DNA of 64,000 nt from an uncultured Solirubrobacterales bacterium (GCA_963788975.1 CAWBIJ010000003.1:71156-135155), one strand, 5' to 3'; counted from the first letter of the stretch, positions 1 to 13,861 are shown. The notes: generated from the sequence alone by a model not told the origin. Program-made: numbers and translations.

Positions 1-577
1 CGCGGTCGAACATGATGTTCGAGGCTCGGAACTCGTCGCGCCGGTTGACCACGGTCAGGTCGCTGGCGAACTTGGAGATGAAGATCGAGTCCTCCATCGC
101 CGAGTCGCCGCCGCCGACCACGATCACCTTCTGGCCTTTGAAGAAGGCGCCGTCGCAGACGCCGCAGGTGGAGACGCCGCGGCCGCCCAGCTCCATCTCC
201 CCGGGGACGCCGAGCCGGCGCGGCTCCGCCCCCATCGCCAGGACCACAGCCTTTGCCAGGTGCTCCTCGTCGCCAAGGTAGACCTTCTGGACGCCGCCGT
301 CGGAGAGCTCGACCCGGTCGACGTCGTCGGTGACGAAGCGTGTACCGAAGCGCTCCGCCTGGGCCCGGAACTGGGTCATCATCTCCGGCCCCATGATCCC
401 CTCCGGATAGCCGGGGTAGTTCTCGACATCGGTTGTGTTCTGTAGCTGTCCGCCCCACTGGAAGCCCTCGAAGACAAGCGGCTCGAGGTTGGCACGCGCC
501 GCGTAGAGCGCCGCGGTGTAGCCGGCGGGGCCGCCGCCGACCACGATCAGGTTCTCGACTCTCTTCTCGTCTGCCAT
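1..577 (-). CDS. trxB: thioredoxin-disulfide reductase (3' end cut by window edge)
   Basis: Minus-strand translation from the ATG at 575-577 gives [31 protein letters not shown]...[52 protein letters not shown]. It has the FAD GxGxxG motif, a CxxC redox pair and a second GGGDSA Rossmann motif. It is absent from the ORF track because no stop codon lies in the window. Confidence 0.9.
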
Positions 578-646
578 CTGTTGCCTAAGTCTTTCGTATC
601 CGGATGTCGACCCAATACTTTACTTTGTATAGTACCGCCTTCGAGC

Positions 647-668
647 GGTAGTGGGTCAATTTGAGCGA
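647..668. repeat. left terminal inverted repeat of the IS1-family element
   Basis: GGTAGTGGGTCAATTTGAGCGA, preceded by CTTCGAGC (639-646). Confidence 0.8.
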
Positions 669-766
669 GCCGCAGGATTCATCTAGCTTCGCCTTCCCAG
701 ATTGACCAAAGCGCCCCCCGCGCAGCGCTAACTGCCGGGGGGCCGGCACAGGAAGGCAGGCTTCCC

Positions 767-1012
767 ATGCAGGCGAATCCTAGGCCGCGCAGCACTTGCG
801 CGGATGCGGTCGTCCAGCGCGCAGTCATGGCGATGGCACTGGCCGTGTACCCGATGTGGCGCACGATCCCTGAACTTGGCCGCAAGATCGACTGCGGAGA
901 CGCCGCAGAGCGTGCCGTGCGCGATCTCGTCGGCATCGGCTTGCTGGAGTGCCGGGGTGTCTCCATCAGGCCGACTCTCGCTGCCATCCACTTCGACCGC
1001 CTCGGCCTATGA
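767..1012 (+). CDS. small putative winged-helix DNA-binding protein (passenger gene)
   Basis: 81-aa ORF whose stop overlaps the next gene's start (ATGA at 1009-1012). The segment IPELGRKIDCGDAAERAVRDLVGIGLLECRGVSIRPTLAAIHFDRL resembles small wHTH proteins. The start is uncertain. Confidence 0.45.
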   Translation: MQANPRPRSTCADAVVQRAVMAMALAVYPMWRTIPELGRKIDCGDAAERAVRDLVGIGLLECRGVSIRPTLAAIHFDRLGL

Positions 1013-1281
1013 ACGTCGCGACCTGCTTCGGCAGGAACCTCGCCCGTTGCCGCAAGCAGGTCGGGATCTCGCAGGAAGAGGCGGCGGTGCGAGCCTCGCT
1101 TCATCGCACCGCAGTTGGGCAGCTTGAGCGCGGGGAACGGACGGCTCGCGTGGATACCCTCGTCAAGTTGGCCGGGGCACTGGGCGTCGAGCCTGGCGAG
1201 CTGCTGGACGGCCTCGAATGGGAGCCGGGAGGAACGCGCCTCGGCCGCTTCGAGCTACCCGATGCGGACGCTACGCTCTGA
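1009..1281 (+). CDS. XRE (Cro/C1) family helix-turn-helix transcriptional regulator
   Basis: MNVATCFGRNLARCRKQVGISQEEAAVRASLHRTAVGQLERGERTARVDTLVKLAGALGV is a classic XRE HTH. I chose the internal ATG at 1009 of ORF 949-1281. Confidence 0.8.
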   Translation: MNVATCFGRNLARCRKQVGISQEEAAVRASLHRTAVGQLERGERTARVDTLVKLAGALGVEPGELLDGLEWEPGGTRLGRFELPDADATL

Positions 1282-1283
1282 GC

Positions 1284-1505
1284 ATGACCAAGCAGTCCAA
1301 GAAGCCTGCCGACCTGAATCGCCTCGCTGCTGCCATTGTCGACGATGCGACTAACGAAACACCGCAGGAGCCAGAAAACCGGCACGCACAAGCTGGACGG
1401 AAGGGCGGCGTCAAGGGGGGCAAAGCGCGCGCTGAGCGCCTGACGCCCGAGCGGCGGTCAGAGATCGCTCAAGCCGCTGCCAGGGCACGCTGGAACCGTC
1501 CCTAG
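1284..1505 (+). CDS. small basic hypothetical protein
   Basis: Internal ATG of ORF 1218-1505, 3 bp after the XRE stop. MTKQSKKPADLN...GRKGGVKGGKARAERLTPERRSEIAQAAARARW carries a lysine/arginine-rich C-terminal motif seen in small nucleic-acid-binding-like proteins. The function is unknown. Confidence 0.5.
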   Translation: MTKQSKKPADLNRLAAAIVDDATNETPQEPENRHAQAGRKGGVKGGKARAERLTPERRSEIAQAAARARWNRP

Positions 1506-1891
1506 CGACGAGCAGCAAGGTTCCCGGTGGTACGCAAGACGTGGTTGAGGCGCTTGCGGCCAGCCGTGACCTGATCCATCTTTCCCTCACAGCACAAGAT
1601 CGCACGGGCGAACTGGTGGGACGGCACTGACCTCAGCTCCTTCCGGACAAGGATCACCCCGATTTGGTGCCGGTTCAAAACGTCGATGATTTCTCGATCC
1701 TTCTTGCCCCGATCATGGGTCACTAGCACCGCCCCCTTTTCCGAGCACCAGGTGCAGTTGTCCTCATCGGAGCTGCCGGCAGGGGGTGCTTCAGGCTCAC
1801 CCACGACGTGCGCTTCAAGGCCAAGGGTTCTCAGGGCCGTCCCAATCGCGGCACCGCCTGGAAGCCCCTGATCAAATAGCAGCCGCTGCAA
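1502..1891 (-). CDS. DUF5615-type PIN-like putative toxin
   Basis: 129-aa ORF MQRLLFDQGLPGGAAIGTALRTLGLEAHVVGE...AVLVTHDRGKKDREIIDVL, directly downstream of a DUF433 protein. This resembles the Mut7-C/PIN-like DUF5615 family that pairs with DUF433 antitoxins. Confidence 0.65.
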   Translation of the reverse strand: MQRLLFDQGLPGGAAIGTALRTLGLEAHVVGEPEAPPAGSSDEDNCTWCSEKGAVLVTHDRGKKDREIIDVLNRHQIGVILVRKELRSVPSHQFARAILCCEGKMDQVTAGRKRLNHVLRTTGNLAARR

Positions 1892-1919
1892 GTCGGCCCT
1901 GCTCCTCCCTCGTAAAAGC

Positions 1920-2588
1920 TCAGTTGTGAAGTGCTGAAAGGCGCCGCTCGAAAGTCAAAGCCGCATTGGCCTGCTTGCCGCTGATTCCAAACTGACTGGC
2001 GATCTCGTCCACGCTCGCGTGTCTGGTCATCTCACGGATCGATTCCGTTGGGATGCGAGTGCCCTCTATAACCGGCTCGCCGAACTGGACGCGAGGGTCA
2101 ACAACGATGTACTTCATGGGCATCCAGGCAGAGGCGCTGCCCTCGTCGTAGCGCACATGAGTGAGCCGCTCCTTCACTGCCTCGCGCATCACCTGCTGTC
2201 CGTGACGCTCTGCCGACTCGATCTGACCGCCAGCAACCAGCTCGTCGTCTACGAAGACGCCGCAGCCATCGGTCTTGATGTCTTCGCTTACGAAGGGCCG
2301 GTCGGTCTTCCACTTCCTGCGCAGATATGCCTCGGCCTCCCGGATGTGGCGGCGCTGAACCCCCCTGCGCTTCAGCTCCCGCACCACAAACAGACTGATT
2401 AGGTCGCCGAAGCTGTAGTCGGGCCGCCAGCGAGTATGGCCAACCGGGTTCAGCACCTCAGTAAGCCAGTCAAGGACGTACTCGCCGTCTTTTTGCTCCC
2501 CACTGAAGGAAACGTAGGCACGCAGACTCGCGAGGCTGTACAGCCCCTGGCCAAGCTCAGTTCCGCGCTCAAGCCCTTTGATCGCCAA
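1920..2588 (-). CDS. DUF433 domain protein (putative antitoxin with N-terminal extension)
   Basis: The C-terminus IVVDPRVQFGEPVIEGTRIPTESIREMTRHASVDEIASQFGISGKQANAALTF matches the DUF433 signature (P.v.fG.P.i.GTRI). It sits 29 bp upstream of the DUF5615 ORF. Confidence 0.7.
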   Translation of the reverse strand: MAIKGLERGTELGQGLYSLASLRAYVSFSGEQKDGEYVLDWLTEVLNPVGHTRWRPDYSFGDLISLFVVRELKRRGVQRRHIREAEAYLRRKWKTDRPFVSEDIKTDGCGVFVDDELVAGGQIESAERHGQQVMREAVKERLTHVRYDEGSASAWMPMKYIVVDPRVQFGEPVIEGTRIPTESIREMTRHASVDEIASQFGISGKQANAALTFERRLSALHN

Positions 2589-2720
2589 TCCGTTTCCTTT
2601 CCGATGAGAAGTGCGTGCTGCGTTCGACGGGGTTTGCTAAGACCCTTCGATACCAAAACCTATACCGGGAGGTTTCCACTCAGCCAAGACGCAACTTTTC
2701 CGTCCGATAGCTCAAGCAAA

Positions 2721-3557
2721 ATGGTCAATATGAATCGGCTCTCGACTGAGAAGCGCGCGCAGATCATCGGCGCGCTCGTAGAGGGCAACAGCATCCGCGC
2801 CACGGTGCGAATGACCGGAGCGGCCAAGAACACGATCACCAAGCTCCTAGGCGATCTCGGGGAAGCCTGCACCGTCTACCAGGACCAGACGCTGCGCGAT
2901 CTCCCCTGCAAAGTGATCGAGGCCGACGAGATCTGGGCCTACTGCTACGCGAAGAAAAAGAACGTGCCGGAGGAGTTCAAAGGGACTCCCGGCTACGGCG
3001 ATGTCTGGACCTATACGGCCCTCTGCGCCGACACCAAGCTCGTTCCTAGCTGGCTCGTCGGGGAGCAAAGCACCGACGACGCCTACGTCTTCATGTGCGA
3101 CCTGGCGAGCCGGATGGCGAATCGCATCCAGCTAACGACCGATGGGAACAGCATCTACGAACAGGCCGTGGGGCCAGCCTTCCGCCAGAAGGTCGATTGG
3201 GCGCAGATCCACAAGACCTACAGCTCGCCTGGTCCCACTGCCGAGTACAAATACAGCCCGCCGGTCTGCACTGGCGCGAAGGTCCGGGCCCTGAAGGGCG
3301 ATCCCGACCGGGACCGGATCTCGACCAGCTACGTCGAGCGGCAGAACCTCTCAATGCGAATGGGTATGCGGCGCTTCACGCGGCTGACAAACGGCTTCAG
3401 TCGCAGGGTCGAGAACTTGGCCCACGCGGTCAGCCTCCACTTCCTTCATTACAACTTCGCCCGCTCGCACCAGACGCTCCAGATGACGCCGGCGATGGCG
3501 GCCGGAGTTGCGGATCACCGCTGGAGCCTCGAAGAGATCGCGGCACTATTGGACTGA
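2721..3557 (+). CDS. IS1 family transposase (single ORF)
   Basis: Internal ATG of ORF 2436-3557. There is an N-terminal HTH (LSTEKRAQIIGALVEGNSIRATVRMTGAAKNTITKLL). DDE-type motifs are DEIWAYCYAKKKN, LTTDGNSIY and SYVERQNLSMRMGMRRFTRLTNGFSRRVENLAHAVSLHFLHYNFARSHQTL, typical of IS1-family proteins. Confidence 0.85.
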   Translation: MVNMNRLSTEKRAQIIGALVEGNSIRATVRMTGAAKNTITKLLGDLGEACTVYQDQTLRDLPCKVIEADEIWAYCYAKKKNVPEEFKGTPGYGDVWTYTALCADTKLVPSWLVGEQSTDDAYVFMCDLASRMANRIQLTTDGNSIYEQAVGPAFRQKVDWAQIHKTYSSPGPTAEYKYSPPVCTGAKVRALKGDPDRDRISTSYVERQNLSMRMGMRRFTRLTNGFSRRVENLAHAVSLHFLHYNFARSHQTLQMTPAMAAGVADHRWSLEEIAALLD

Positions 3558-3792
3558 GCGTCCGATGGCGCTGGTATTCGTAGCTCCGCAGTTACCTCTA
3601 AGGGAACTGCTGGTAGTTCATCCCGCGAACCCCTCGGCAGGCATCGTCTCCACGTCTAAGCCCTGTCGAGGGGTTACGACTTTCGACGCCTAGCTTGAGA
3701 TCTCCTTTGGCTGGGGTCTTGCTCAAAGGCTTCGCCAATCATGCTGTTCTGTCCGGACAGAATGACCCAGACTGGATCAGTCTGACCCGAAA

Positions 3793-3814
3793 TCGCTCAA
3801 ACTGACCCACTACC
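3793..3814. repeat. right terminal inverted repeat of the IS1-family element
   Basis: TCGCTCAAACTGACCCACTACC is the reverse complement of the left repeat with one mismatch. It is followed by CTTCGAGC (3815-3822). Confidence 0.8.
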
Positions 3815-3823
3815 CTTCGAGCC

Positions 3824-4942
3824 TCAGCTGGAAGCGGGCTCCAGCGCCTTCGGACCCGCGTCTCGCTCGATCGGCAGCCCCTCGCTCTCCCATTCTTGGG
3901 CGGTGTGGCGAAGCTGGAGGAAGGCGACGATCCCCAGAGGGAGCGGCATCCAGAAGGCAATCAGCCGGTAGACCAGGATCGCCGGGAAGACGGTCTCCTC
4001 GGGGATGCCGAAGAGGACGAAGGCGCCGATCATCCCGGCATCCACCGCCCCGACACCCGCCGGCGCCAGCGGGAAGAGGTTGGCGACCATGCCGAGGAAG
4101 AAGCCCTGGACCACGACCGCGAGCGGGACGTGCACGCCGAAGGCCTTGAAGGAAGCCCAGAGGATGCCGATGTTGGCCGCCCAGAAGCCGGCGGCGCCGA
4201 TCACCGCCAGCCCACCCCGCGACGGGTTGGCGAAGAGCCCGGCCGTGAACCTCAGCCCCTCACCGGCGATCGCCGGCACCTTGGCGATGTTGGCGACGAT
4301 CGCTTTGCTCCGCTCACTGCGGGCGAACCCTTCGACCCGCTTTCCCAGGTCGGGCGGGATCAGAGCCACCAGCACACCGAGGATTAGCAGCAGGCCCGCG
4401 ACCCCGGCCGGAATGATCGTCAGCTCGACCGAGCTCTTGCCCGGCACGACCCCGGTTCGCAGCAGGATCCCGCAGACGATCAGCGCCAGCGGGTAGAAGA
4501 AGTACTGGAGCGCGAGGAAGGCGACCATCCGCCTCCCCACGTCGTGCCGCGGCATCCCGGCCTTGCGCAGCGCCCAGAACGTGAGGGCGATGCCGCCCGC
4601 GCCGCCGGCCGAGAAGAGCCGCGTCGCGGCAACCCCGGCCATGTTGATCTCGTAGGTCTCCTTCCAGCTGAGCGGCAGCGCGTCCCCGCCGACCACGGCC
4701 TTGAACAACGCGATGTAGGTGGCGATCGCGACGACGTTGAAGCAAACCGCGACGGCGACCCAGAGGAGGTCGGCTTCGCTCAGCTTGCCGAGCGCGTCGC
4801 CGAGGCCGACCAGGCGCGGGAAGAGGAAGTAGATCGCGACCAGGAGGATGAGGACGAGCAGGGCGGTCTGGACGACCCGCCGTCGCGTGAACAGCGGCAG
4901 TTCGACGGCGCCGTTACCGTTCGCCGAGTCCTGCGGAGACAC
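3824..4942 (-). CDS. polytopic membrane protein, lysylphosphatidylglycerol-synthase TM-region/flippase-like (UPF0104-like)
   Basis: 372-aa ORF with about 8 hydrophobic helices. The overall pattern resembles the UPF0104/MprF flippase-like domain. The family call is tentative. Confidence 0.6.
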   Translation of the reverse strand: MSPQDSANGNGAVELPLFTRRRVVQTALLVLILLVAIYFLFPRLVGLGDALGKLSEADLLWVAVAVCFNVVAIATYIALFKAVVGGDALPLSWKETYEINMAGVAATRLFSAGGAGGIALTFWALRKAGMPRHDVGRRMVAFLALQYFFYPLALIVCGILLRTGVVPGKSSVELTIIPAGVAGLLLILGVLVALIPPDLGKRVEGFARSERSKAIVANIAKVPAIAGEGLRFTAGLFANPSRGGLAVIGAAGFWAANIGILWASFKAFGVHVPLAVVVQGFFLGMVANLFPLAPAGVGAVDAGMIGAFVLFGIPEETVFPAILVYRLIAFWMPLPLGIVAFLQLRHTAQEWESEGLPIERDAGPKALEPASS

Positions 4943-4952
4943 CCCAGGGAAG

Positions 4953-5897
4953 CTACCCGCTCGCGAGGCGCTCTAGACGCCGCAACCCGCGATTCACCCT
5001 CAGCACCGCCGGTTCGGCGAGCGGCTCGCCGCGTCGCACGGCAGCGACCAGACCCGCTCCGGCGAGCAGATCGGTGACGTAGTGCTCGCCCAGGTAGACG
5101 AGCGCGAAGCCCAACGTCAGCGCGTAGCTCCAGCCAGCCGCCCCCTCGGCGCGTCCCGCTTCGGAAAGCACGATTGCCGCGATCACCGAGGTCGCGAAGT
5201 GCAGCGAGGGCATCGCCGCCCAAGGATTACCTCCGAGCGCCCCGTACATCGCCGGCCACGCCTTTCCCCATGTCGGTTCACCGACCTCGACCATGATCCG
5301 CCGCACCTCTTCCCCGGTCAGGCCCTGCTCGGATGCCCACCACGGTGGCGCCGTCGGCACGGCGAAGTAGCCGACGCAACCGAGGTCGAAGACGGCAGCG
5401 AGCTGGCGAGCCGCGCGGGGAAAGCGCTCGGGGTGGCGGAGGAGGATCCAGACGAGAGCGGCATAGGGCTCGAGGAACCAAAGCCAGTGCACCCAGGTGA
5501 GGAGGCGGTCGACGCCGTTGACCCGGCCGAGTCGGGCGAGGGCGCGCTGCAGACGGGCGTTGGGCAGCCGCCCGAGGCCGATCGCACGGTCGATTGCGAT
5601 CGGGTAGCGGCTGCGCAGGCGCCGGCGCAGGCGCTCCGGATCGTCGTAGGGAAGCTCGTGCACCATCGTGAAGGCCCACATCTGCATCGCGTAGAGGACG
5701 ACGTCGCGCTTGTGGGAGCGCGGGCGCAGAACGGCGACCGCCAACGGCCCGCTCGCGCAGGCTGCAACCGTGACCGGAGCGGGAATGCGCAGGCGACGCC
5801 TCAGCAGCGGCACGGCCACCGCGGCGACCAGCGCGCCCGCCGCCCCGGCGCGCACCACCGTGCGTAGCGCCGGAGATGGCCGGGAGCGCCTGCGCAT
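4953..5897 (-). CDS. PAP2-superfamily membrane phosphatase/phosphotransferase-like protein
   Basis: The C-terminal motifs MPSLHFATSV and YLGEHYVTDLLAG match PAP2 motifs C2/C3 (SxH ... HxxxD). I chose the start at ATG 5895-5897 because the ATG at 5996 lies inside an intergenic repeat. The start is uncertain. Confidence 0.6.
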   Translation of the reverse strand: MRRRSRPSPALRTVVRAGAAGALVAAVAVPLLRRRLRIPAPVTVAACASGPLAVAVLRPRSHKRDVVLYAMQMWAFTMVHELPYDDPERLRRRLRSRYPIAIDRAIGLGRLPNARLQRALARLGRVNGVDRLLTWVHWLWFLEPYAALVWILLRHPERFPRAARQLAAVFDLGCVGYFAVPTAPPWWASEQGLTGEEVRRIMVEVGEPTWGKAWPAMYGALGGNPWAAMPSLHFATSVIAAIVLSEAGRAEGAAGWSYALTLGFALVYLGEHYVTDLLAGAGLVAAVRRGEPLAEPAVLRVNRGLRRLERLASG

Positions 5898-5993
5898 AAG
5901 GTCGGCGAGTATAGGTCCGCGGCAGCGGGCGGGCGGGAGCGGGGCGCCGCCCCTCCTGATTAGAATGGCCGCGCTTTGGAGCCGAGGACTCAT

Positions 5994-6139
5994 CACGAAA
6001 TCCCCGCGTGTGCGGCTGGCGAGCGCCGGACCAAGCGGGGCAAGGACGCAGGGAGGCCCAATAGCAGCGCTATTTGGCCGACCGAGGACGCCGCACCGCG
6101 CCGGTCCGCCGCCGCCAGACGTGCGCGAGGGGTTTCGTG
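5994..6139. repeat. palindromic intergenic repeat, long form (copy A)
   Basis: The termini CACGAAATCCCC...GGGGTTTCGTG are inverted. About 95 nt of core (GGCTGGCGAGCGCCGGACCAAGCGGGGCAAGGACGCAGGGAGGCC.AATAGCA.CGCTATTTGGCCGACCGAGGACGCCGCACCGCGC) are near-identical to 47956-48052. Confidence 0.8.
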
Positions 6140-6844
6140 ATGAGTCCCAGCTCCCCTGGCACCGACCAGATCCAGACCCTGTTCGGCATCGGCTTCGTCG
6201 CTTTTGCGATCGTCGCCGTCGTCGTCAATGGCGCGCTGATCTACGCGCTGCGTCGCCGCCGCGCCGGTCGCGGCGCCCAGGCCGCCGATCCCGAGCCCCG
6301 ATCGGGGCGTCACCCCCAGCTCCGTGTCGGCGCTGCGCTCGGTGTCTTCGCGACGGCGATCCTCGTGCTCAGCCTGGTCTTCACCGAGAAGGCGCGCGAG
6401 GCTCCCGCGACCGGACCCGCCGGTCTCCAGGCCAAAGGTTCGGAGCCGCTGAGGATCACGGCGACCGGTCAGCAGTGGCTGTGGCGCTACGAGTACCCCA
6501 ACGGAGCCTTCTCCTATTACAAGCTGGTGGTGCCGGTCGACACCGCGATCAAGCTCGAGCTCGGCTCCACCGACGTGATCCACACCTGGAACGTGCCCAG
6601 CCTTGCCGGCAAGCGTGACGCCGTGCCGGGCAGGGTCCACGAGGTCTCCTTCCTAGCCGACGAGGAGGGCAGCTACACGGGCCGGGCCGCGACCCTCTCC
6701 GGCGCCGCCTTTGCGGCGATGGGCACCGAAGTCGAGGCCGTCTCTCCCGAGGAGTACGAGAGCTACGTGAAACAGCTCGACGCCGACATCCAGGCCGCCC
6801 AGGACGAGGTCGTCAGCCAAATCGAAAGCGGGGAGACGCCATGA
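6140..6844 (+). CDS. cytochrome oxidase subunit II-like protein lacking the CuA ligands
   Basis: Internal ATG of ORF 6074-6844. It has two N-terminal TM helices and a cupredoxin domain (QQWLWRYEYP, DVIHTWNVPSLAGKRDAVPG). The CuA loop reads GRAATLSGAAFAAM instead of CxExCGxxHxxM. Confidence 0.75.
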   Translation: MSPSSPGTDQIQTLFGIGFVAFAIVAVVVNGALIYALRRRRAGRGAQAADPEPRSGRHPQLRVGAALGVFATAILVLSLVFTEKAREAPATGPAGLQAKGSEPLRITATGQQWLWRYEYPNGAFSYYKLVVPVDTAIKLELGSTDVIHTWNVPSLAGKRDAVPGRVHEVSFLADEEGSYTGRAATLSGAAFAAMGTEVEAVSPEEYESYVKQLDADIQAAQDEVVSQIESGETP

Positions 6845-8529
6845 GCGCGAGCGCAAAGCGCCCGGAGATCATCGTCGACGGATTCCCGCGCAGCCGCTCG
6901 CGCTGGGCTGAGCTGGCGACCAGTGGTGATCACAAGGACATCGGCCGGATCCTGATCGGCGGCGCGCTCGGGTTCCTCTTCATCGCCCTGATCGAGCTGC
7001 TGCTGATGCGGCTGCAGCTGGCGATTCCGGGGAACACATTCCTCTCTCCGGAGACCTTCAACCGGATGCTCTCGCTCTACGGCACGACCGCGATCTTCCT
7101 CTTCGCGCTCCCGCTCGTCTTCGGCCTCTTCTACTACCTGGCGCCGCTGCAGATTGGCGCCCGCGGGACCGCCCTCCCCCGCCTCGGTCAGCTCGGCCTC
7201 TGGCTCTGGGTCGCCGGAGCCACCGTCCTCTACGCGGGCTTCCTCTTCACCCCCTCCGAGGCGGGCATCAACCCCCTGGCGCCGCTCTCCGAGCTGGCCT
7301 TCCTCTCCAACAACGGGGTCGACGCGTGGGCGGCCGCCACCGGCCTGGCGACGCTCGGCTTCGTCCTGCTGGCGATCGACCTGACCACGACGCTGCGCAG
7401 GATGCGGGCGCCGGGCATGGCCTGGAGGCGACTGCCGGTCTTCGCCTGGGCCACGGCGATCGGCTCCTGGCTGATGCTCGTGATCGGCCCGGTGCTGCTG
7501 GCTGCGATCACGATGCTGCTGATCGATCGCAACTTCGACGGAATCTTCTTCGCCGACGGCTCCGGAGGGGCGCCACTGCTCTGGCAGCACCTGAGCTGGA
7601 TCTTCTTCACCGGCACCTACATGCTGGTCATGATCGCCGCCTTCGGCGCGATCTGCGAGATCGTCCCGTCGCTCGTCGGCCGGCCGCTCGAGGGCCGCTC
7701 CACGGTGATCGGCTCGCTCGTCACGATCGCCGTGATCGGCACTCTGGCCTGGATCCAGAACATGTTCACGGCGCCGATCGGGATCGCCTGGATGTACTTC
7801 GCGATGACGATGGCCCTGGCCCTGATCGTCCCCTTCGGGCTGATCGTCTACAACCTGATCGCGACGATCGCTGGCGGCACCGTTCGCATGCGAGCGCCGC
7901 TGCTCTTCGCTGCCGGCGCGGTCTCGGCGATCTCGGTCGGCCTCGCGGCGGAGATCTCACACTCAATGGTCGGCCTCGCCTGGAAACTGAAGAACACGAC
8001 CGATGCCACCGGGGCGACGCATTTCGCCCTGATCGGCGGCGCCGTCTTCGGCGGTTTCGCCGCCCTCCACTACTGGTTCCCGAAGATGACCGGCCGCACG
8101 ATGGGCGAGAGCCTGGCGCGGATCTCCTTCTGGACGATGATCCTCGGTGCCATCCTCGCCTTCGTCCCACTCCTCTTCTCCGGTACCTACGAGGGGCAGG
8201 TGATCGACGCCTACAAGTTCTTCGGCGACGAAAGCATCAGCGGCTACAACCTGGTCGCCTCGATCGGCGCCCTCATGCTCGCCGCCGGCATCGTGATGAC
8301 GCTCGTCAACGCGATCCTCAGCCGTGAGGGCGGGCCCGAGGCCGGGCACGACCCCTGGGGCGGAGACTCGCTCGAGTGGTTTGCGCTCTCGCCCCCTGAG
8401 CCCCACAATTTCGACGTGCTTCCCGACGTGCGCAGCGAGCACCCGATGCGGGACATCCGCACGGCGATCGCCCACCGCACCGCGCGCAAGCCCGAGCGGC
8501 CAGCGCCCGAGTCACAGCCGGTAGCCTGA
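6841..8529 (+). CDS. heme-copper oxidase subunit I-like protein lacking heme a and CuB histidines
   Basis: GDHKDIG start motif and 12-TM pattern. It is colinear with the canonical CtaD in this window, but the ligand positions read SLYGTTAIF, FFTGTYMLV, AWIQNMF and THFALIGG. An ATGA overlap links it to the upstream subunit II-like ORF. Confidence 0.8.
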   Translation: MSASAKRPEIIVDGFPRSRSRWAELATSGDHKDIGRILIGGALGFLFIALIELLLMRLQLAIPGNTFLSPETFNRMLSLYGTTAIFLFALPLVFGLFYYLAPLQIGARGTALPRLGQLGLWLWVAGATVLYAGFLFTPSEAGINPLAPLSELAFLSNNGVDAWAAATGLATLGFVLLAIDLTTTLRRMRAPGMAWRRLPVFAWATAIGSWLMLVIGPVLLAAITMLLIDRNFDGIFFADGSGGAPLLWQHLSWIFFTGTYMLVMIAAFGAICEIVPSLVGRPLEGRSTVIGSLVTIAVIGTLAWIQNMFTAPIGIAWMYFAMTMALALIVPFGLIVYNLIATIAGGTVRMRAPLLFAAGAVSAISVGLAAEISHSMVGLAWKLKNTTDATGATHFALIGGAVFGGFAALHYWFPKMTGRTMGESLARISFWTMILGAILAFVPLLFSGTYEGQVIDAYKFFGDESISGYNLVASIGALMLAAGIVMTLVNAILSREGGPEAGHDPWGGDSLEWFALSPPEPHNFDVLPDVRSEHPMRDIRTAIAHRTARKPERPAPESQPVA

Positions 8530-8535
8530 TCTCTG

Positions 8536-9435
8536 ATGAGCGGCGCCGAGACCGTCGTAGTCGCCGCGCAGCGACCAGCAGCACTGACCGTCCTGCGGGA
8601 CTACGTCACGCTGACCAAGCCGAAGGTGCAGTCGCTACTGCTGCTGACCACGATCACGACGATGTACGTGGCCGGCGATCCCTCGCTCGGCCTCGTCCTC
8701 CTCACCTGCCTCGGCGGCGCCCTCTCAGCGGGCGGCGCCGGTGCGATCAACCACGCGGTCGACCGTGACATCGACCGCACGATGGCGCGCACGGCAGATC
8801 GGCCGGTAGCCAGCGGCCGAGTCTCGCCGGGAGCGGCGATCGCCTTCGGCGCTGCGCTCGGCTTGGCGTCGTTCACGCTGCTCTCGCTGACCGTCAACCC
8901 CCTCGCCGCATCGCTCTCGCTGTCCGGGCTGTTCGGCTACGTCTTCGTCTACACGCTGTGGCTGAAGCGCCGCACTCCGCAGAACATCGTGATCGGCGGC
9001 GCCGCCGGCGCGGTGCCTCCGCTGGTCGCCTGGGCAGCGGTGACCGGAGGGCTCAGCGGCACCGCCTTCTACCTCTTCGCGATCGTCTTCTTCTGGACGC
9101 CGCCCCACTTCTGGGCGCTCTCACTGCTGATGAAGGACGAGTACGCGAAGGCCGGCGTGCCGATGCTGCCAGTCGTCCGCGGCGAGGACGAGACGCGCCG
9201 CCAGATCCTCCTCTACACCGTGCTGCTCTACGCGGTGACCCAGCTGCCCTTCTGCGCCGGCGCCTTCGGGGTCGAGTACCTGGTCGCCTCGATGAGCCTC
9301 GGGGCCGCCTTCATCTACTTTGCGGTGCGGCTGCTGCGCAGCGGCGAGCGGAGCTGGGCCCTGCGCACCTACCTCTTCTCGCTCGCCTACCTGGCGCTGC
9401 TCTTCCTGGCGATGCCGCTCGACCGGGTGCTCTAG
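8536..9435 (+). CDS. ctaB: protoheme IX farnesyltransferase (heme O synthase)
   Basis: UbiA-family motifs NHAVDRDIDRTMARTADRPVASGRV and FFWTPPHFWALSLLMKDEYAKAGVPMLPVV. Confidence 0.9.
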   Translation: MSGAETVVVAAQRPAALTVLRDYVTLTKPKVQSLLLLTTITTMYVAGDPSLGLVLLTCLGGALSAGGAGAINHAVDRDIDRTMARTADRPVASGRVSPGAAIAFGAALGLASFTLLSLTVNPLAASLSLSGLFGYVFVYTLWLKRRTPQNIVIGGAAGAVPPLVAWAAVTGGLSGTAFYLFAIVFFWTPPHFWALSLLMKDEYAKAGVPMLPVVRGEDETRRQILLYTVLLYAVTQLPFCAGAFGVEYLVASMSLGAAFIYFAVRLLRSGERSWALRTYLFSLAYLALLFLAMPLDRVL

Positions 9436-9448
9436 TAGAAATCCGGCC

Positions 9449-9562
9449 ATGGATCGCCAGACGGCAAAAAAGAACATGACCTCGGCCCTGGTCGCCGGGG
9501 GCATCGCCGCCGCGATCTTCGCCCTCTGCTTCGTGGCCGCGACCCTCTACATCGCCTCATGA
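9449..9562 (+). CDS. possible 37-aa single-TM peptide
   Basis: Internal ATG of ORF 9320-9562, giving MDRQTAKKNMTSALVAGGIAAAIFALCFVAATLYIAS. Its stop overlaps the next ORF's start (ATGA). It has no recognisable family. Confidence 0.3.
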   Translation: MDRQTAKKNMTSALVAGGIAAAIFALCFVAATLYIAS

Positions 9563-9849
9563 GCGCAGAGCGGAGCGTTCCCGAGCCCGGCGAGCTGGTC
9601 TACCGGCCGCAGTCCTCCTGGCTGCCGGCCATCCTCGCCTTCGCCCTGGCGCTTGCCGTCTGCGGGATCTTCGCCCCGTTCATGGTGCCTGGGTGGATCT
9701 ACTCGGCGATCGGCATCGTGACCGCCCTGGTGGTCCTCCGCAGGATGACTCGCGGCGCAATCCGCGAGTACTTCCGCCTCCCCCGCAATCAGCGCGTGCG
9801 CGGCGCAGTGCTGCCAGTCGAAACGATCTCCCCGCCACATAAGGGCTGA
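9559..9849 (+). CDS. small two-TM membrane protein, unknown function
   Basis: 96-aa ORF with two hydrophobic helices (WLPAILAFALALAVCGIFAPF, WIYSAIGIVTALVVL), in the respiratory cluster. Confidence 0.5.
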   Translation: MSAERSVPEPGELVYRPQSSWLPAILAFALALAVCGIFAPFMVPGWIYSAIGIVTALVVLRRMTRGAIREYFRLPRNQRVRGAVLPVETISPPHKG

Positions 9850-9865
9850 GGCCAGCCTCAGCCCT

Positions 9866-10267
9866 CTATTCCGGCGTCATCCCGGATGTCGCGCCCTCAG
9901 ATGTCCAGACTTTGACGATGTCGCGCATCGAGAGCACGCCGACCAGCTCTGCGTCGTCGTAGACGACGAGGTGGCGGATGCCGCGGCGCGCCATCTCGGC
10001 CGCGGCGCGCTCCAGGCTCCAGTCGGGCGAGGCCGCGATCACGCTGTCGCTCATGTGGTCGGCGACCCGCTCGGCGTCGGGGTCATCACCGGCGCCGACC
10101 GAGAGCAGGATGTCGCGCTCGGTGACGATGCAGGGCACCGGTGTCTCGTCGTCGCTGACCAGCGCCGCGCCGATCCCTTTGTCCGCCATCATCGCCGCCG
10201 CCTCTCGCAGCGTGTGCGAAGGGCCGACGGTGAGCACCACCTCTGACATCCCGTCCCGTACCCGCAT
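9866..10267 (-). CDS. CBS domain pair protein
   Basis: Two CBS repeats are present (VLTVGPSHTLREAAAMMADKGIGAALV...IVTERDILL; VIAASPDWSLERAAAEMARRGIRHLVV...VLSMRDIVKV). Confidence 0.85.
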   Translation of the reverse strand: MRVRDGMSEVVLTVGPSHTLREAAAMMADKGIGAALVSDDETPVPCIVTERDILLSVGAGDDPDAERVADHMSDSVIAASPDWSLERAAAEMARRGIRHLVVYDDAELVGVLSMRDIVKVWTSEGATSGMTPE

Positions 10268-10396
10268 CTGCGCTCCTTCCCCGCGTCACCGCGAGATCGT
10301 GTGAATCGCCTCAAGCCTACCCATCCATCCCAGTCCTCGCCAGGCATCTTTTCGCGAGTCCTGGGCATATAGACTCCGGCGCGCCCAGCGCCGTGT

Positions 10397-11089
10397 ATGC
10401 CTAACTCAATTCGCCCAACCCGCCTGCTGCTCGCCCTCGCCGTCGTGGTCGCCGTCGCGCTGACCGCCTCCGGCTGCGGCACGAGCAGCGCGGACGAGGA
10501 GCGCGGCCGAGTGCTCTTCAAACAGAAATGCGGCACCTGCCACATCATGGCCCAGGCGGGCACGAGCGGCACGATCGGGCCCGACCTCGACGACGCCTTC
10601 GGCCCAGCGCGCGCCGCCGGCGAGACAGGCAGCACGATCGAAGGCGTGGTCAAGGCCCAGGTCGAGAACCCGCGGCCCATAACCGACAACCCGGCGGTCT
10701 CGATGCCGGCCGACATCGTCGAGGGACAGGATCTCGAAGACGTCGCCGCCTACATCGGCGAGTACGCGGGCGTGCCCGGCGCGGCGCCCCCGACCGTACC
10801 CGGCGGCCCCGGCGCCCAAGTCTTCGCAAACAACGGCTGCGGTGGCTGCCACACGCTCGCCGCGGCCAAATCGGGTGGCGTAACCGGCCCCAACCTCGAC
10901 GATGTCCTACCCGGACAGAGCGCCGCGATGATCCACAAATCGATCGTCGACCCAAACTCGGTCCTCGCCAAAGGCTATCCGGCAAACGTGATGCCGCCGA
11001 CCTACGAAACCGCGCTCAGCCCGAAAGAACTGGAAGACCTCGTCGCCTACCTGGTCAAATCGACCAGCGGCAAATCCAAAGCCGGCTGA
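10397..11089 (+). CDS. dihaem class I c-type cytochrome, lipoprotein
   Basis: Lipobox LTASGC. Two CxxCH motifs (CGTCH, CGGCH), each followed by GPDLDD/GPNLDD, with distal Met regions. Confidence 0.85.
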   Translation: MPNSIRPTRLLLALAVVVAVALTASGCGTSSADEERGRVLFKQKCGTCHIMAQAGTSGTIGPDLDDAFGPARAAGETGSTIEGVVKAQVENPRPITDNPAVSMPADIVEGQDLEDVAAYIGEYAGVPGAAPPTVPGGPGAQVFANNGCGGCHTLAAAKSGGVTGPNLDDVLPGQSAAMIHKSIVDPNSVLAKGYPANVMPPTYETALSPKELEDLVAYLVKSTSGKSKAG

Positions 11090-11141
11090 GCCCGCCCGCG
11101 GCGGCGACCCGACTGTCGCTGGCATCATCCGTCGACTACCG

Positions 11142-12113
11142 ATGCGTGAGCGCCTAGAGATCACGCCGCAGCTCTACGCCAAGGTGACGATCGTCGCCTT
11201 GGCAGCCCTCTCTCTGATCGTGCTTACCGGCGCTGGGGTGCGGCTGACCGGCTCCGGCCTTGGCTGCCCCGACTGGCCGAAGTGCTACGGGAAAACAGTG
11301 CCACCGCTCGACACCCACGCAGTGATCGAGTACGGCAATCGCCTCCTCACCGGCTTCGTCGGCCTCGCCGTGATCGCCGCCAGCGCCCTCGCCTGGCTGC
11401 GGCGGCCGTTCCGCTGGCACCTCGCCTTCTTCGGCGCGCTGCTGCCCATGGGGGTGATCGGACAGGCTGTCCTTGGGGCCCTGGTCGTCAAGCACCACCT
11501 CGCCCCGGAGCTGGTGATGTGCCACTTCCTGCTCTCGATGCTGCTGCTCGACGCCGCTTTCGCGCTTGCCTGGTGCGCCCGCTACGAGTTCTGGGAGCGA
11601 CGACGCTCCTCGGACCGGCTCGGCGTCTGGGCAGTCCGCGCCCTGGTCCCGCTCGGGCAACTGACGATCCTCGCCGGGACGGTCGCGACCGCCTCGGGCC
11701 CTCACGCCGGCGACCACGAAGGTGAGCTGGTCAGGCGGTTCGACTTCGAGGGCGCCGGCACCTTGGAGTGGGTGGTGCAGCGCCATAGCGCGATCGCCAC
11801 GGTCTTCGGCTTCGCGGCGATCGGGGTCTGGCTCCTGCTGAGGCGGCAGGGAGGCGACAGGCGCGCCGTCAGACCCCTCACCGTCGTGATCTGCCTGCTC
11901 GGGGTCCAGGGAGCCGTAGGGGGCCTCCAGTGGGCCCTGGAGCTGCCGGCGGAACTGGTCTGGCTGCACATCGTCCTCGCCACGACCACCTGGCTGGCGA
12001 TGCTGTGGACGGTTGCCACTGCCGGCCGGCTGGAGCCACGAGGGGCCGTCGTGGCTCCCAGCGCTGAGACCATGCCGGAGCCGGCCCTGAGCGCCCCCGG
12101 CAGGGCCCCCTAG
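11142..12113 (+). CDS. ctaA: heme A synthase (COX15/CtaA)
   Basis: GSGLGCPDWPKCYG, IEYGNRLLTG, a multi-TM pattern and conserved His residues in the helices. Confidence 0.85.
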   Translation: MRERLEITPQLYAKVTIVALAALSLIVLTGAGVRLTGSGLGCPDWPKCYGKTVPPLDTHAVIEYGNRLLTGFVGLAVIAASALAWLRRPFRWHLAFFGALLPMGVIGQAVLGALVVKHHLAPELVMCHFLLSMLLLDAAFALAWCARYEFWERRRSSDRLGVWAVRALVPLGQLTILAGTVATASGPHAGDHEGELVRRFDFEGAGTLEWVVQRHSAIATVFGFAAIGVWLLLRRQGGDRRAVRPLTVVICLLGVQGAVGGLQWALELPAELVWLHIVLATTTWLAMLWTVATAGRLEPRGAVVAPSAETMPEPALSAPGRAP

Positions 12114-12128
12114 ACGCGCCCCACGCTG

Positions 12129-12932
12129 ATGCTGCCCTTCGCCGTCTCGATCGCGACGCTCAGCCTCGCGCAGGCGACGCTGGTCGCCCTGCCTCGTCCC
12201 GCTGCCTCCCCCGCCCTCGCGCGGCTCGGCGGTCGTTGGTGGGCGCTCGTCCCGCCCGGGTCGATCGCGCTCGTGGTCGCAGCGATCGCGCTCGAGTCCG
12301 ACTCGGCGCAGGTGCTGACCTACGTCGCCCTACTCGCCGTGCCTCCCCTGGCCGCCCTCGCGCTCGGCGGAGTCATGCGCGGGGCCCGCATCGGGCTGGC
12401 GGCGCTCGTCGCTCCGCTCTTCGCGCTCGCCTGGGCCTCCCAGGAGTCCCTTGCGGGCGAGGGTGCGGCACTGGCGCTCACCGGCCTCGCCTGCGTCAGC
12501 CTCGGCTGGCTGCTGGCCTGCGTGGTCCCGCCGCGTTGGCTGAAGCTGGGGATCTACGCGATGGCGGCAATCGACGCTTGGCTGGTCTCCGCCGAGCTCC
12601 TGCAAGAGCCGAACGCGGTTCTCAACGCCGCCTCGCCGGGCAGCCTGCCGCAACTGCAGTACGCCTCCTTCGGCTCAGCCGTGACCGGGTTCGGCGACCT
12701 CTTCCTCGCTGCCACCCTGGGCGCGCTGCTCGCCGCCGACCGGCGGCTTCAGCTGACCGGTGCCGTCCTGCTCGCAATTCTCGCCCTCAGCTTCGACCTG
12801 CTCTTCCTCGCCGCCGACTCGCTGCCGGCAACGGTCCCGGTCGCGCTCACTCTCGCCGTCCTCGATCTCGGCGGCCGGCGCTGGCCTAAGCCGGCTAGAG
12901 CAGCGCCAGGAGCAGCGCGGTCTGGGCGCTGA
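12129..12932 (+). CDS. polytopic membrane protein with YD-like/GxGD/PAL-like motifs (possible presenilin/SPP-type intramembrane aspartyl protease)
   Basis: 267-aa hydrophobic ORF. It has Asp149 in the helix IYAMAAIDAWLV, GFGD at 187-190 at the start of the next helix, and LPATVPVAL at 232-240. The motif-based function call is tentative. Confidence 0.55.
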   Translation: MLPFAVSIATLSLAQATLVALPRPAASPALARLGGRWWALVPPGSIALVVAAIALESDSAQVLTYVALLAVPPLAALALGGVMRGARIGLAALVAPLFALAWASQESLAGEGAALALTGLACVSLGWLLACVVPPRWLKLGIYAMAAIDAWLVSAELLQEPNAVLNAASPGSLPQLQYASFGSAVTGFGDLFLAATLGALLAADRRLQLTGAVLLAILALSFDLLFLAADSLPATVPVALTLAVLDLGGRRWPKPARAAPGAARSGR

Positions 12933-13143
12933 TCAGCCCGACGAAGGCGGCGAACGCCACCGCGAACAGCTGAATCATGGTCCGTTGCATCAGCTCAAAG
13001 CGAGCATCGACTCGGGCTTCAAACGCGTCGAAGCGGGATTCCAGCGATCCGAAGCGAGCATCCACGCGACGCCCCTGCTCGACGACCTGTTCCTTCAGGT
13101 CGTCCATCCGCTCGTCGGTCCAGCTCTCTCGCACAGCCTCCAT
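12895..13143 (-). CDS. small coiled-coil, C-terminally membrane-anchored protein
   Basis: 82-aa ORF with repeated heptad-like RVDARF/SRFDAF segments, then a hydrophobic tail IQLFAVAFAAFVGLISAQTALLLALL. Confidence 0.5.
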   Translation of the reverse strand: MEAVRESWTDERMDDLKEQVVEQGRRVDARFGSLESRFDAFEARVDARFELMQRTMIQLFAVAFAAFVGLISAQTALLLALL

Positions 13144-13210
13144 ATTGGCAGACTAGAAGACAGAAAGTTACGTGTGGGCACCTCGATGTGACGATTTCGC
13201 AACGACTACA

Positions 13211-13861
13211 TCAGGAAGCCGTGCGCTCGGCGGAGAGATCCACCACGACATGGGTGATCGGCAGGTTGATCTGCTCACGGGCCTGTTCGACCACCCCGTG
13301 CTCCAGCCAGCGCGAGCGCTCCGGCGGATGGGTCGAGATCACGATCTCGTCAGCGGGAAAGGTGCGCAGCGCATCCTCGATCGCAACGTTGGGGTCTGAG
13401 TCGCCGATCTCTCCCCTCCCCTTCAGCCCGAGCTCGTCGATCGCGATCAGCGAGAGCTCCATGCGCTGGCGCGCCAGCTCGATCGCTTCGTCGATCGCAG
13501 AGGCCCAGTGCGCCGCCCGCGAGCCGGCCAGCGCCGGCGTGATCACGAGAATCTCGCAGTCCCGACCGTGGCATCGATTGCCGATCTCCTCCAGCAGCTC
13601 GCCACCGCCGACCGTCTCGTTGGCGACGACCAGCACCCGGTGCTTGCCGTCGCCGCCGCGGGTGACCTCGACCGTGCGTGGCAATGATCCCCGCGAGCTG
13701 CGGTAGGCGATCCCCGCTCCGAACCCGATCAACGCCGCCGCGAGGACGACTCCAAAGACCGGCCGCGTCAGCAGCGTCAGCACGATCACCGCCACGGCCC
13801 CCGCGCCGATCACGACCACCCACCGAAAAGCGTCAGCCTCCGACCTAAGAGGGTTGTGCAT
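13211..13861 (-). CDS. membrane-anchored Rossmann-like (USP/HUP-type) domain protein
   Basis: Two N-terminal TM helices, then RVLVVANETVGGGELLEEI...ILVITPALAGSRAAHW...GEIGDSDPNVAIEDALRTFPADEIVISTHPPERSRWLEHGVV. The same domain occurs twice in ORF 14759-15637. Confidence 0.7.
   Translation of the reverse strand: MHNPLRSEADAFRWVVVIGAGAVAVIVLTLLTRPVFGVVLAAALIGFGAGIAYRSSRGSLPRTVEVTRGGDGKHRVLVVANETVGGGELLEEIGNRCHGRDCEILVITPALAGSRAAHWASAIDEAIELARQRMELSLIAIDELGLKGRGEIGDSDPNVAIEDALRTFPADEIVISTHPPERSRWLEHGVVEQAREQINLPITHVVVDLSAERTAS

Follow-up and report, generated by a model that had tools for sequence, protein, structure and literature searches.

A probable cargo-carrying transporter insertion sequence of a divergent IS1 branch, placed beside a recurrent target motif upstream of trxB in Solirubrobacterales

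Insertion sequences (IS) of the IS1 family, as delimited in ISfinder, have inverted repeats of about 20-25 bp that start with GGnnnTG and make target duplications of 8-9 bp; of IS1 itself, no more than a loose preference for A+T-rich targets is known. Passenger genes found inside the inverted repeats of IS-like elements have led to the concept of the transporter IS (tIS; PMC7986276, PMC9330008), and in the IS1202 family the insertions keep a constant distance of 5 bp to a site bound by XerC (PMC10132070). Here we describe an element at 647-3814 of a 64,000-nucleotide stretch of DNA from an uncultured Solirubrobacterales bacterium (GCA_963788975.1 CAWBIJ010000003.1:71156-135155); "the window" denotes this whole stretch, and positions are counted from its first letter. 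In all likelihood, the element is a complete, cargo-carrying transporter IS that belongs to a large, divergent branch of IS1 with a single open reading frame (ORF), that is abundant in Solirubrobacterales, and that is directed to its site by a sequence motif.

The left terminal inverted repeat (IRL; plus strand) is the 22-nt sequence GGTAGTGGGTCAATTTGAGCGA at 647-668, of which bases 1-18 form the family core. Its reverse complement at 3793-3814, the right terminal inverted repeat (IRR; minus strand), matches in 21 of 22 positions. The sole mismatch is position 13, where the IRL has A and the IRR, in agreement with the family consensus, has G; the departure sits in the IRL. Directly outside both arms lies the 8-bp duplication CTTCGAGC (639-646 and 3815-3822). 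Both tips start with GGTAGTG, which fits GGnnnTG. The span, inverted repeats included, is 3,168 bp, with a G+C content of 0.58-0.68 within the element versus 0.68-0.72 outside. According to a repeat finder, the two arms are the longest inverted repeat in 300-4300, and, with up to three mismatches allowed, the 22-mer occurs at these two sites only in the 64 kb and nowhere in 100 shuffles. Bases 638 and 3814 are both C, so that this copy alone would also be compatible with a 9-bp duplication; its relatives give 8 bp. The original prediction, made from the window alone, had described a complete element of the IS1 type with 22-bp ends, one mismatch and an 8-bp duplication, and its tips, its duplication and its IS1-related transposase all bear this out at the positions given. 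It had also conceded that inverted repeats closer to the transposase gene would reduce the outer ones to coincidence; none was found, either in the repeat lists or by the 22-mer search with up to three mismatches.

Relatives were sampled by a scan that kept one genome per species and gave 80 loci, all gathered through the transposase. The 18-bp core end GGTAGTGGGTCAGTTTGA delimits 57 further elements from other genomes, hence 58 with that of the window. Perfect 8-bp duplications flank 47 of the 58, four more match in 7 of 8 positions, and all of these sequences differ. The lengths range from 1.5 kb (L055, truncated) to 7.5 kb (L001, an outer element with a nested copy) and mostly fall between 2.3 and 5.5 kb. 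With 58 elements that share the same core and mostly have duplications of their own, the comparison of sequences has shown the whole 3,168 bp to be a mobile unit that makes 8-bp duplications, in line with the earlier claim that the element moves as one piece of 3.2 kb. In L001, one element with the duplication GTCGAGGG lies inside another with the duplication GCTGGACA, the spans being 5798-13479 and 9937-13311.

The transposase (2721-3557, plus strand) is a single ORF of 278 aa; its probable true start is the ATG at 2730, which leaves 275 aa. With a 16-sequence family profile as query and the InsAB' fusion of IS1A from E. coli K-12 as target, hhalign gave a probability of 94.8% and an E value of 5e-8 over InsAB' residues 54-226, a span that takes in the helix-turn-helix (HTH) plus the DE(I/Q)W (DEIW/DEQW), TDG and ERxNL motifs. 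D69, D141 and E206 are invariant in the family alignment. The NCBIfam IS1 model NF033558 is matched with E 3e-13 and 50 bits (cut-off 100), the Pfam family DDE_Tnp_IS1 (PF03400) with 20.4 bits (cut-off 24.1). The IS1-like nature that had been proposed for this gene is thus upheld. It is not, however, a classical IS1 transposase: an insA/insB' frameshift is lacking, the ORF of 275-278 aa being uninterrupted, and so is a zinc finger, for there is no cysteine in the first 49 residues and the alignment with InsAB' begins at residue 54, past the finger. By these features the enzyme is a distant, single-ORF relative of the IS1 family. It is also a common one. More than 8000 homologues at 75% identity or above were found, mostly in Solirubrobacterales, and many of them are labelled 'IS1 family transposase' by JGI and NCBI. 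Exact-sequence look-ups of the transposase, of the homologue P0001 and of the flanking membrane protein gave no match; homologues were used instead. The sequence itself is a mosaic: it is near-identical to P0001 over most of its length and agrees with P0002 in the last ~30 residues, which suggests recombination between elements.

An unexpected feature of these elements is where they sit. When the targets of those with perfect duplications were reconstructed and aligned, many proved to lie beside one A+T-rich motif. A 20-nt weight matrix built from 29 instances has the consensus GCTATACTTTTTGAAGTAAw, with the dyad TACTT-N4-AAGTA. In the window, the only match of the matrix in 64 kb is at 614-636, outside the element, and reads ACTATACAAAGTAAAGTATT on the trxB strand. 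The motif begins exactly 5 nt past the duplication in 34 of 60 elements, including that of the window, and this offset is invariant. It lies on the IRL side in 14 and on the IRR side in 21, L006 having it on both. The genes that read away from the motif are trxB, trxA, cysK/M, a gene for a rhodanese-MoeB/MoeZ-type adenylyltransferase, erpA/iscA and one for an RrpB/HxlR-like redox regulator. The 20-nt dyad is itself a candidate for the operator or promoter element of a regulon for thiol redox and sulfur in Solirubrobacterales. Elements occur in both orientations relative to the motif, and the offset is the same at all six locus classes. The loci, 1.26 Mb in total, hold 58 motif sites, and at least 37 of these are directly adjacent to the end of an element. 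In seven elements (L083, L002, L012, L016, L046, L060 and L073), the end of another element follows directly past the duplication, as would be seen if a newcomer were inserted at the same measured position beside an older copy. A target-selective IS is recognised by independent insertions at a constant distance from a defined sequence that is also found unoccupied in related genomes; the fixed offset on both sides at six locus classes, the empty motif sites and the tandem re-use agree with this.

Two individual cases may be added. At 3310-3335 of L083, the end of the other element can be seen directly beyond the 8-bp duplication. L006 (5696-11179) is devoid of a duplication and has the target motif on both sides, at a cysK and at a moeB/moeZ-like site; it is probably the recombination product of two copies at neighbouring target sites.

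The trxB site of the window illustrates this apparent targeting. The start codon of trxB (TIGR01292, minus strand) is at 577-575, 69 bp from the left end of the element; on the other side, a flippase-like membrane protein of the LPG_synthase_TM type is encoded at 3824-4942 (minus strand), its stop codon being 1 bp from the right duplication. These distances agree with the original prediction, which had put the element 60-70 bp upstream of trxB and right after the stop of the neighbouring gene. The position is not incidental; the spacer is a preferred target of the clade. The closest relative, L081, was found via the flanking membrane protein; its flanks are 93.7% and 96.2% identical, and its membrane-protein gene is followed by 67 bp and then by trxB. 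Once the element and one copy of the duplication are removed from the window, the two spacers are collinear base for base. This is the empty site that was to be looked for in relatives, and with flanking genes 94-96% identical it supports the view that the insertion is fairly recent. An exact 32-nt empty-site pattern had no match in the metagenomes; the empty site was reached through the flanking protein. The four loci sampled through the membrane protein alone, L081, L208, L209 and L210, are all empty and have the motif upstream of trxB (at 6134, 7113, 7087 and 7175, respectively).

In other metagenomes the same spacer is occupied, as seen with members of the transposase's 90% cluster. L084-L087 have the orientation of the window, and their cargo is an AAA_15/AAA_21 ATPase; in the two with both ends, L084 and L085, the position is that of the window and the duplication is CTCCGGCA. 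L083 has an element at the same position in the opposite orientation, with the duplication CGCCCGAG and the end of an older element on the far side. In orientation, the window and L084 thus stand against L083, L002, L004 and L022. All in all, at least six further genomes have an element at this position, and this repeated occupation implies that insertion at trxB is tolerated. The native 69 bp and the motif remain attached to trxB, while read-through from the upstream, co-oriented gene is cut. The insertion is best read as the use of a preferred landing site and not as a promoter-breaking accident. A promoter scan of 450-4000 revealed no site of the sigma-70 type under the rules of the scan. 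The variant base at position 13 of the IRL (654-659), read toward trxB, turns CTGACC into a better -35-like TTGACC. A hybrid trxB promoter made of this TTGACC and TACTAT was considered and dismissed; the spacing would be 19 nt, outside the usual 16-18.

Between the ends, the element can be divided into a fixed backbone and exchangeable parts. The order is IRL, hairpin leader, three small genes, cargo slot, a block upstream of the transposase gene, the DDE transposase, a second slot and IRR. Ahead of the first gene, the alignment of 20 left ends reveals a conserved box, CTAGCTTCGCC (683-693, plus strand), that holds TAGCTT, a -10-like TANNNT, and would serve as a promoter. It is followed by a leader hairpin with a 12-bp stem (713-743, plus strand). 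Across 21 elements, 7 of its 12 pairs display compensatory double changes and nearly no pairs are broken. A small hairpin just ahead of the ATG (751-765) pairs the Shine-Dalgarno-like GGAAGG with CTTCC. The leader hairpin may control the expression of the operon that follows; Rfam had no match to the element, this hairpin included.

The operon starts with an 81-aa protein (767-1012, plus strand), probably a winged helix-turn-helix (wHTH) protein and a backbone gene of the closer clade. Its family gives only weak matches, to MarR_2, HTH_20 and HTH_IclR, and to the AdcR structure (E 0.003); homologues stand in the same position at about 30 loci. Its stop overlaps the next start (ATGA). The second backbone gene codes for a 90-aa HTH protein of the XRE family (1009-1281, plus strand; Pfam HTH_3, 54.6 bits), the top PADLOC match of which is a restriction-modification 'control protein' and which has homologues at about 35 loci. 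The third product is a basic protein of 73 aa (1284-1505, plus strand) without a Pfam family, a near-universal companion of the transposase: ORF clustering places the gene in 57 of 58 elements, and tblastn yields 73 hits over most of the 80 loci. The family comprises 1011 homologues, all unnamed, and is marked by the motifs KKPADLNRLAAAIV and GGKARAxxLTPERRSEIAxxAAxARW. Its AlphaFold model consists of three helices (predicted local distance difference test score, pLDDT, 71.6). Sequence searches of solved structures with the transposase, the wHTH and the 73-aa protein brought nothing significant except the weak AdcR match of the wHTH profile. In about 30 of the closest elements, the wHTH and XRE genes precede the 73-aa gene in the same order. 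Such conservation of position and order, apparent from tblastn, ORF clustering and the maps, is incompatible with the earlier classification of the trio as cargo; the trio belongs to the conserved backbone of the family. The motif at the C-terminus of the 73-aa protein, as GGKARAxxLTxEERxEIAxxAAxxRW, is also the N-terminus of P63C-domain cargo proteins, for example at 10805-11878 of L001, and of phrog_2384; it looks like a small mobile module that binds DNA or protein.

Whatever the cargo, a block of about 40 bp is kept upstream of the transposase gene (2695-2732, plus strand; consensus TTTTCCGTCCGAxxGCTCAAGCATAATGGTCAGTATG). The family hexamer CATAAT is located 7 nt ahead of ATGAAC, which suggests a leaderless mRNA; the block is probably the promoter, with a transposase mRNA that starts at 2730 and not at 2721. 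The corresponding blocks of L002 and L060 read TTGACA-N17-CATAAT / CATAGA. Downstream of the transposase gene, the right-hand region of the element (3558-3792; 235 bp) is variable; it lacks a conserved ORF and resembles no other element. In relatives, this slot measures from 0 to 2.3 kb and takes up further cargo; beside the IRR, only the repeat itself is conserved.

The first slot, between the 73-aa gene and the transposase gene, holds different genes in different elements, as is typical of a tIS. In the window it contains two minus-strand genes. One encodes a 129-aa DUF5615 / PIN-like protein, the putative toxin (1502-1891; DUF5615 25.0 bits against a cut-off of 23.8, PIN_10 21.1 bits and below the cut-off); the other encodes a 222-aa protein with C-terminal DUF433 (COG2442), the putative antitoxin (1920-2588; Pfam DUF433, 41 bits). 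The genes are 28 bp apart and thus display the adjacent, co-oriented arrangement of PIN-COG2442 pairs, which are known as toxin-antitoxin (TA) systems of the VapBC type (PMC3834315, PMC2701414). Among the loci, tblastn detects homologues in L003 and L035 only, as adjacent genes at the same junction; both elements are at other loci, each with a duplication of its own. In the window and in L003, the stop of the pair overlaps the stop of the 73-aa gene. The TA pair had been predicted to be cargo, and a variable slot that holds it in two other elements only confirms this. Elsewhere the slots are filled by other genes of the TA or defence kind; the 109 cargo ORFs include SDH-type ClpP-like proteases, AAA_16/AAA_22/nSTAND/KAP ATPases, N6_N4 methylase-Mrr fusions, HTH-Peptidase_M78, P63C, NYN, SocA_Panacea, Fic, DUF3800 and GmrSD proteins and an AbiEii-like ATPase. 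A cluster that joined the DUF433 gene with ~400-aa AAA ATPase ORFs was discarded as an artefact of antisense ORFs that overlap the start of the transposase gene.

How is the target recognised? Some guidance comes from other lineages. A metagenome scan collected 131 unrelated ends with the exact 18-bp core. At 13 of these 131, a TTGACA-like hexamer starts at position +7, as compared with ~0.4 per other position, and TTG is found at +7 in 23. In the window's clade, +7 to +12 is filled by TATAC(A/T) or TACACT. The inverted repeat, in turn, bears GGTCAG at positions 8-13 from the tip, which is the same 7-nt spacing. From the equal spacing it would seem that repeat and target are gauged by a single DNA-binding module, although the orientations differ. 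A tentative proposal, to which we concede slightly less than an even chance, is that this IS1 branch reads a short sequence 7 nt from the joining site and by this means homes to the thiol-redox/sulfur motif here and to a -35-like TTGACA elsewhere. The 73-aa basic protein is a candidate for a targeting or regulatory factor. If the proposal holds, the elements would be promoter-seeking vehicles that park interchangeable TA or defence cargo just upstream of the promoters of stress genes. As a separate observation, elements of Verrucomicrobia and Proteobacteria (L060 7326-9594, L066 and L079) lie 4-7 bp upstream of CTATTGACT or TTGACT; in L060, TTGACT is the -35 of a TTGACT-N17-TATAGT promoter ahead of a LexA-like gene.

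A less demanding explanation would be that everything but the transposase is passenger DNA and that the element hit the region upstream of trxB by chance, the promoter perhaps being displaced. The ends, the duplication and the gene content are indeed as this explanation describes them, and the TA pair truly is variable cargo. The trio kept in about 30 elements, the 73-aa gene in 57 of 58, an insertion geometry relative to the motif that is the same as in 33 other elements, and the re-use of the trxB site nevertheless make it very improbable. A trifle less credible still is the assumption that the shared sites reflect vertical inheritance and selection of a few old, neutral insertions instead of targeting. 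Of course, the loci stem from related Solirubrobacterales, and an intergenic insertion ahead of a promoter should be tolerated. Yet both orientations are present at every locus class with elements seen on both sides, a second element sits in tandem at the same 8 bp, and not only the closest but also three further relatives are empty. Moreover, the left modules of the elements at trxB are just 73% identical between the window and L084 or L083 and, thus, more diverged than the host flanks (88-91%). Finally, selection cannot fix an offset to the base pair. With one identical offset at six loci and in both orientations, inheritance plus selection fails as an explanation, and directed insertion is the best reading.

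Directed insertion by a transporter IS has its weak points, too. With both IS1 models, the score of the transposase falls short of the curated cut-off. The motif is missing in 26 of 60 elements and at all of the 131 metagenomic ends of other lineages, from which it follows that the specificity belongs to the clade and is not absolute; the occupancy counts are biased upwards because the loci were collected through the transposase. Position +7 can be filled by TATACT, by TTGACA or, on the other strand, by an IS end, which is no single recognition code. Activity, target recognition and TA function are all inferred. Only one copy of the element is visible in the 64-kb window, the IRL is one step off the consensus, and the -10-like hexamer before the transposase gene is CAAAAT in place of the CATAAT of most relatives; the last two departures imply that this copy may be less active. 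These same three points would fit a structurally complete but immobile relic, which we regard as improbable: the transposase is full-length with D69, D141 and E206 in place, the five accessory ORFs are all open, the two copies of the duplication agree in every base, and a relative with 94-96% identical flanks lacks the insertion. It also has to be considered that no element protein reads the target at all and that a host protein on the dyad, such as a thiol-redox regulator or promoter-bound RNA polymerase, tethers the transposase. The dyad TACTT-N4-AAGTA recurs throughout a coherent regulon, with a gene for a redox-type regulator among its members, dyad and duplication are centred about two helical turns apart, the hexamer at the same spacing in other lineages is a -35-like TTGACA, and the IS1202/XerC couple is a precedent (PMC10132070). 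On the other hand, the wHTH of the element has no similarity to the HxlR-like host regulator (hhalign probability 0.1%, by which homology between the two was rejected), and the ends of other copies are targeted at the same spacing, which argues for an end-binding protein of the element itself. On balance, tethering by a host protein is unlikely, if far from absurd.

For the transporter IS as we see it, the following working would be conceivable. Recognition of the motif, or else of the hexamer within it that is 7 nt away from the duplication, would direct insertion, and the recogniser may be the HTH of the transposase, the 73-aa protein or, on the dyad, a protein of the host. The XRE protein, the wHTH protein and the leader hairpin would regulate expression of the element, and the TA pair would stabilise it. 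To judge from its intact parts, the copy appears to be still active; the element is probably a real, active transporter IS.

IS elements with passengers are no novelty, and one more of the IS1 type, with a TA pair, would in itself be unremarkable. The family, however, counts its transposase homologues in the thousands and has a constant layout with defined slots, so that it could serve as a natural and tractable system of gene delivery in an actinobacterial order that has been little studied. The exact spacing from a motif upstream of thioredoxin, cysteine and Fe-S genes offers a testable model for target choice by a transposase or a 73-aa helper. As a by-product, a candidate motif of a thiol-redox regulon in Solirubrobacterales has emerged.

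In the literature searched, ISfinder being outside the search, no description of the branch, its backbone module or its targeting was found, nor anything on ISMhu11 or on DUF433 together with DUF5615. With E. coli IS1 (IS1A, InsA / InsAB'), the element shares the HTH and DDE transposase, the GGnnnTG ends, the duplications of 8-9 bp and a small regulatory gene upstream of the catalytic part. It differs in that it has one ORF without frameshift, lacks the InsA zinc finger and has two stretches inserted into the catalytic domain; it is also longer (3.2 kb against 768 bp), with three additional genes in the backbone and with cargo slots, and it has a strong target preference. To our knowledge, base-pair-exact, motif-linked insertion is without example among IS1-type DDE transposases. 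The ISMhu11-type subgroup of IS1, with a single ORF and lengths of up to several kb owing to passenger genes, may come close, and transporter IS, including those of the IS1595 family, resemble the element in having passenger genes inside the inverted repeats. For neither of them are we aware of a report on a fixed set of backbone genes, a leader hairpin with covariation or insertion at specific sites.

As regards targeting, the IS1202 family is the nearest parallel: there, too, a DDE-type IS is found repeatedly and in many replicons, each time the same short distance away from a dyad that a protein binds. Its transposase, however, is unrelated, it uses one orientation only, its target is a recombination site and no motif of the promoter or operator kind, and it has no cargo. 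Tn3-family transposons with TA passengers (PMC9330008) likewise have a TA pair beside a regulatory or transposition module, presumably with a stabilising effect; they differ in the transposase, in replicative transposition with a resolvase, in 5-bp duplications and in the absence of comparable targeting. The TA pair itself finds its counterpart in vapBC10 of Synechocystis (PMC3834315; predicted in PMC2701414), where, as here, the DUF433 gene comes first and a PIN-like gene follows in the same operon. In contrast to the PIN-COG2442 VapBC systems, the DUF433 protein of the element has 222 aa with an uncharacterised N-terminal part of 160 aa, and its putative toxin matches DUF5615/PIN_10 only marginally.

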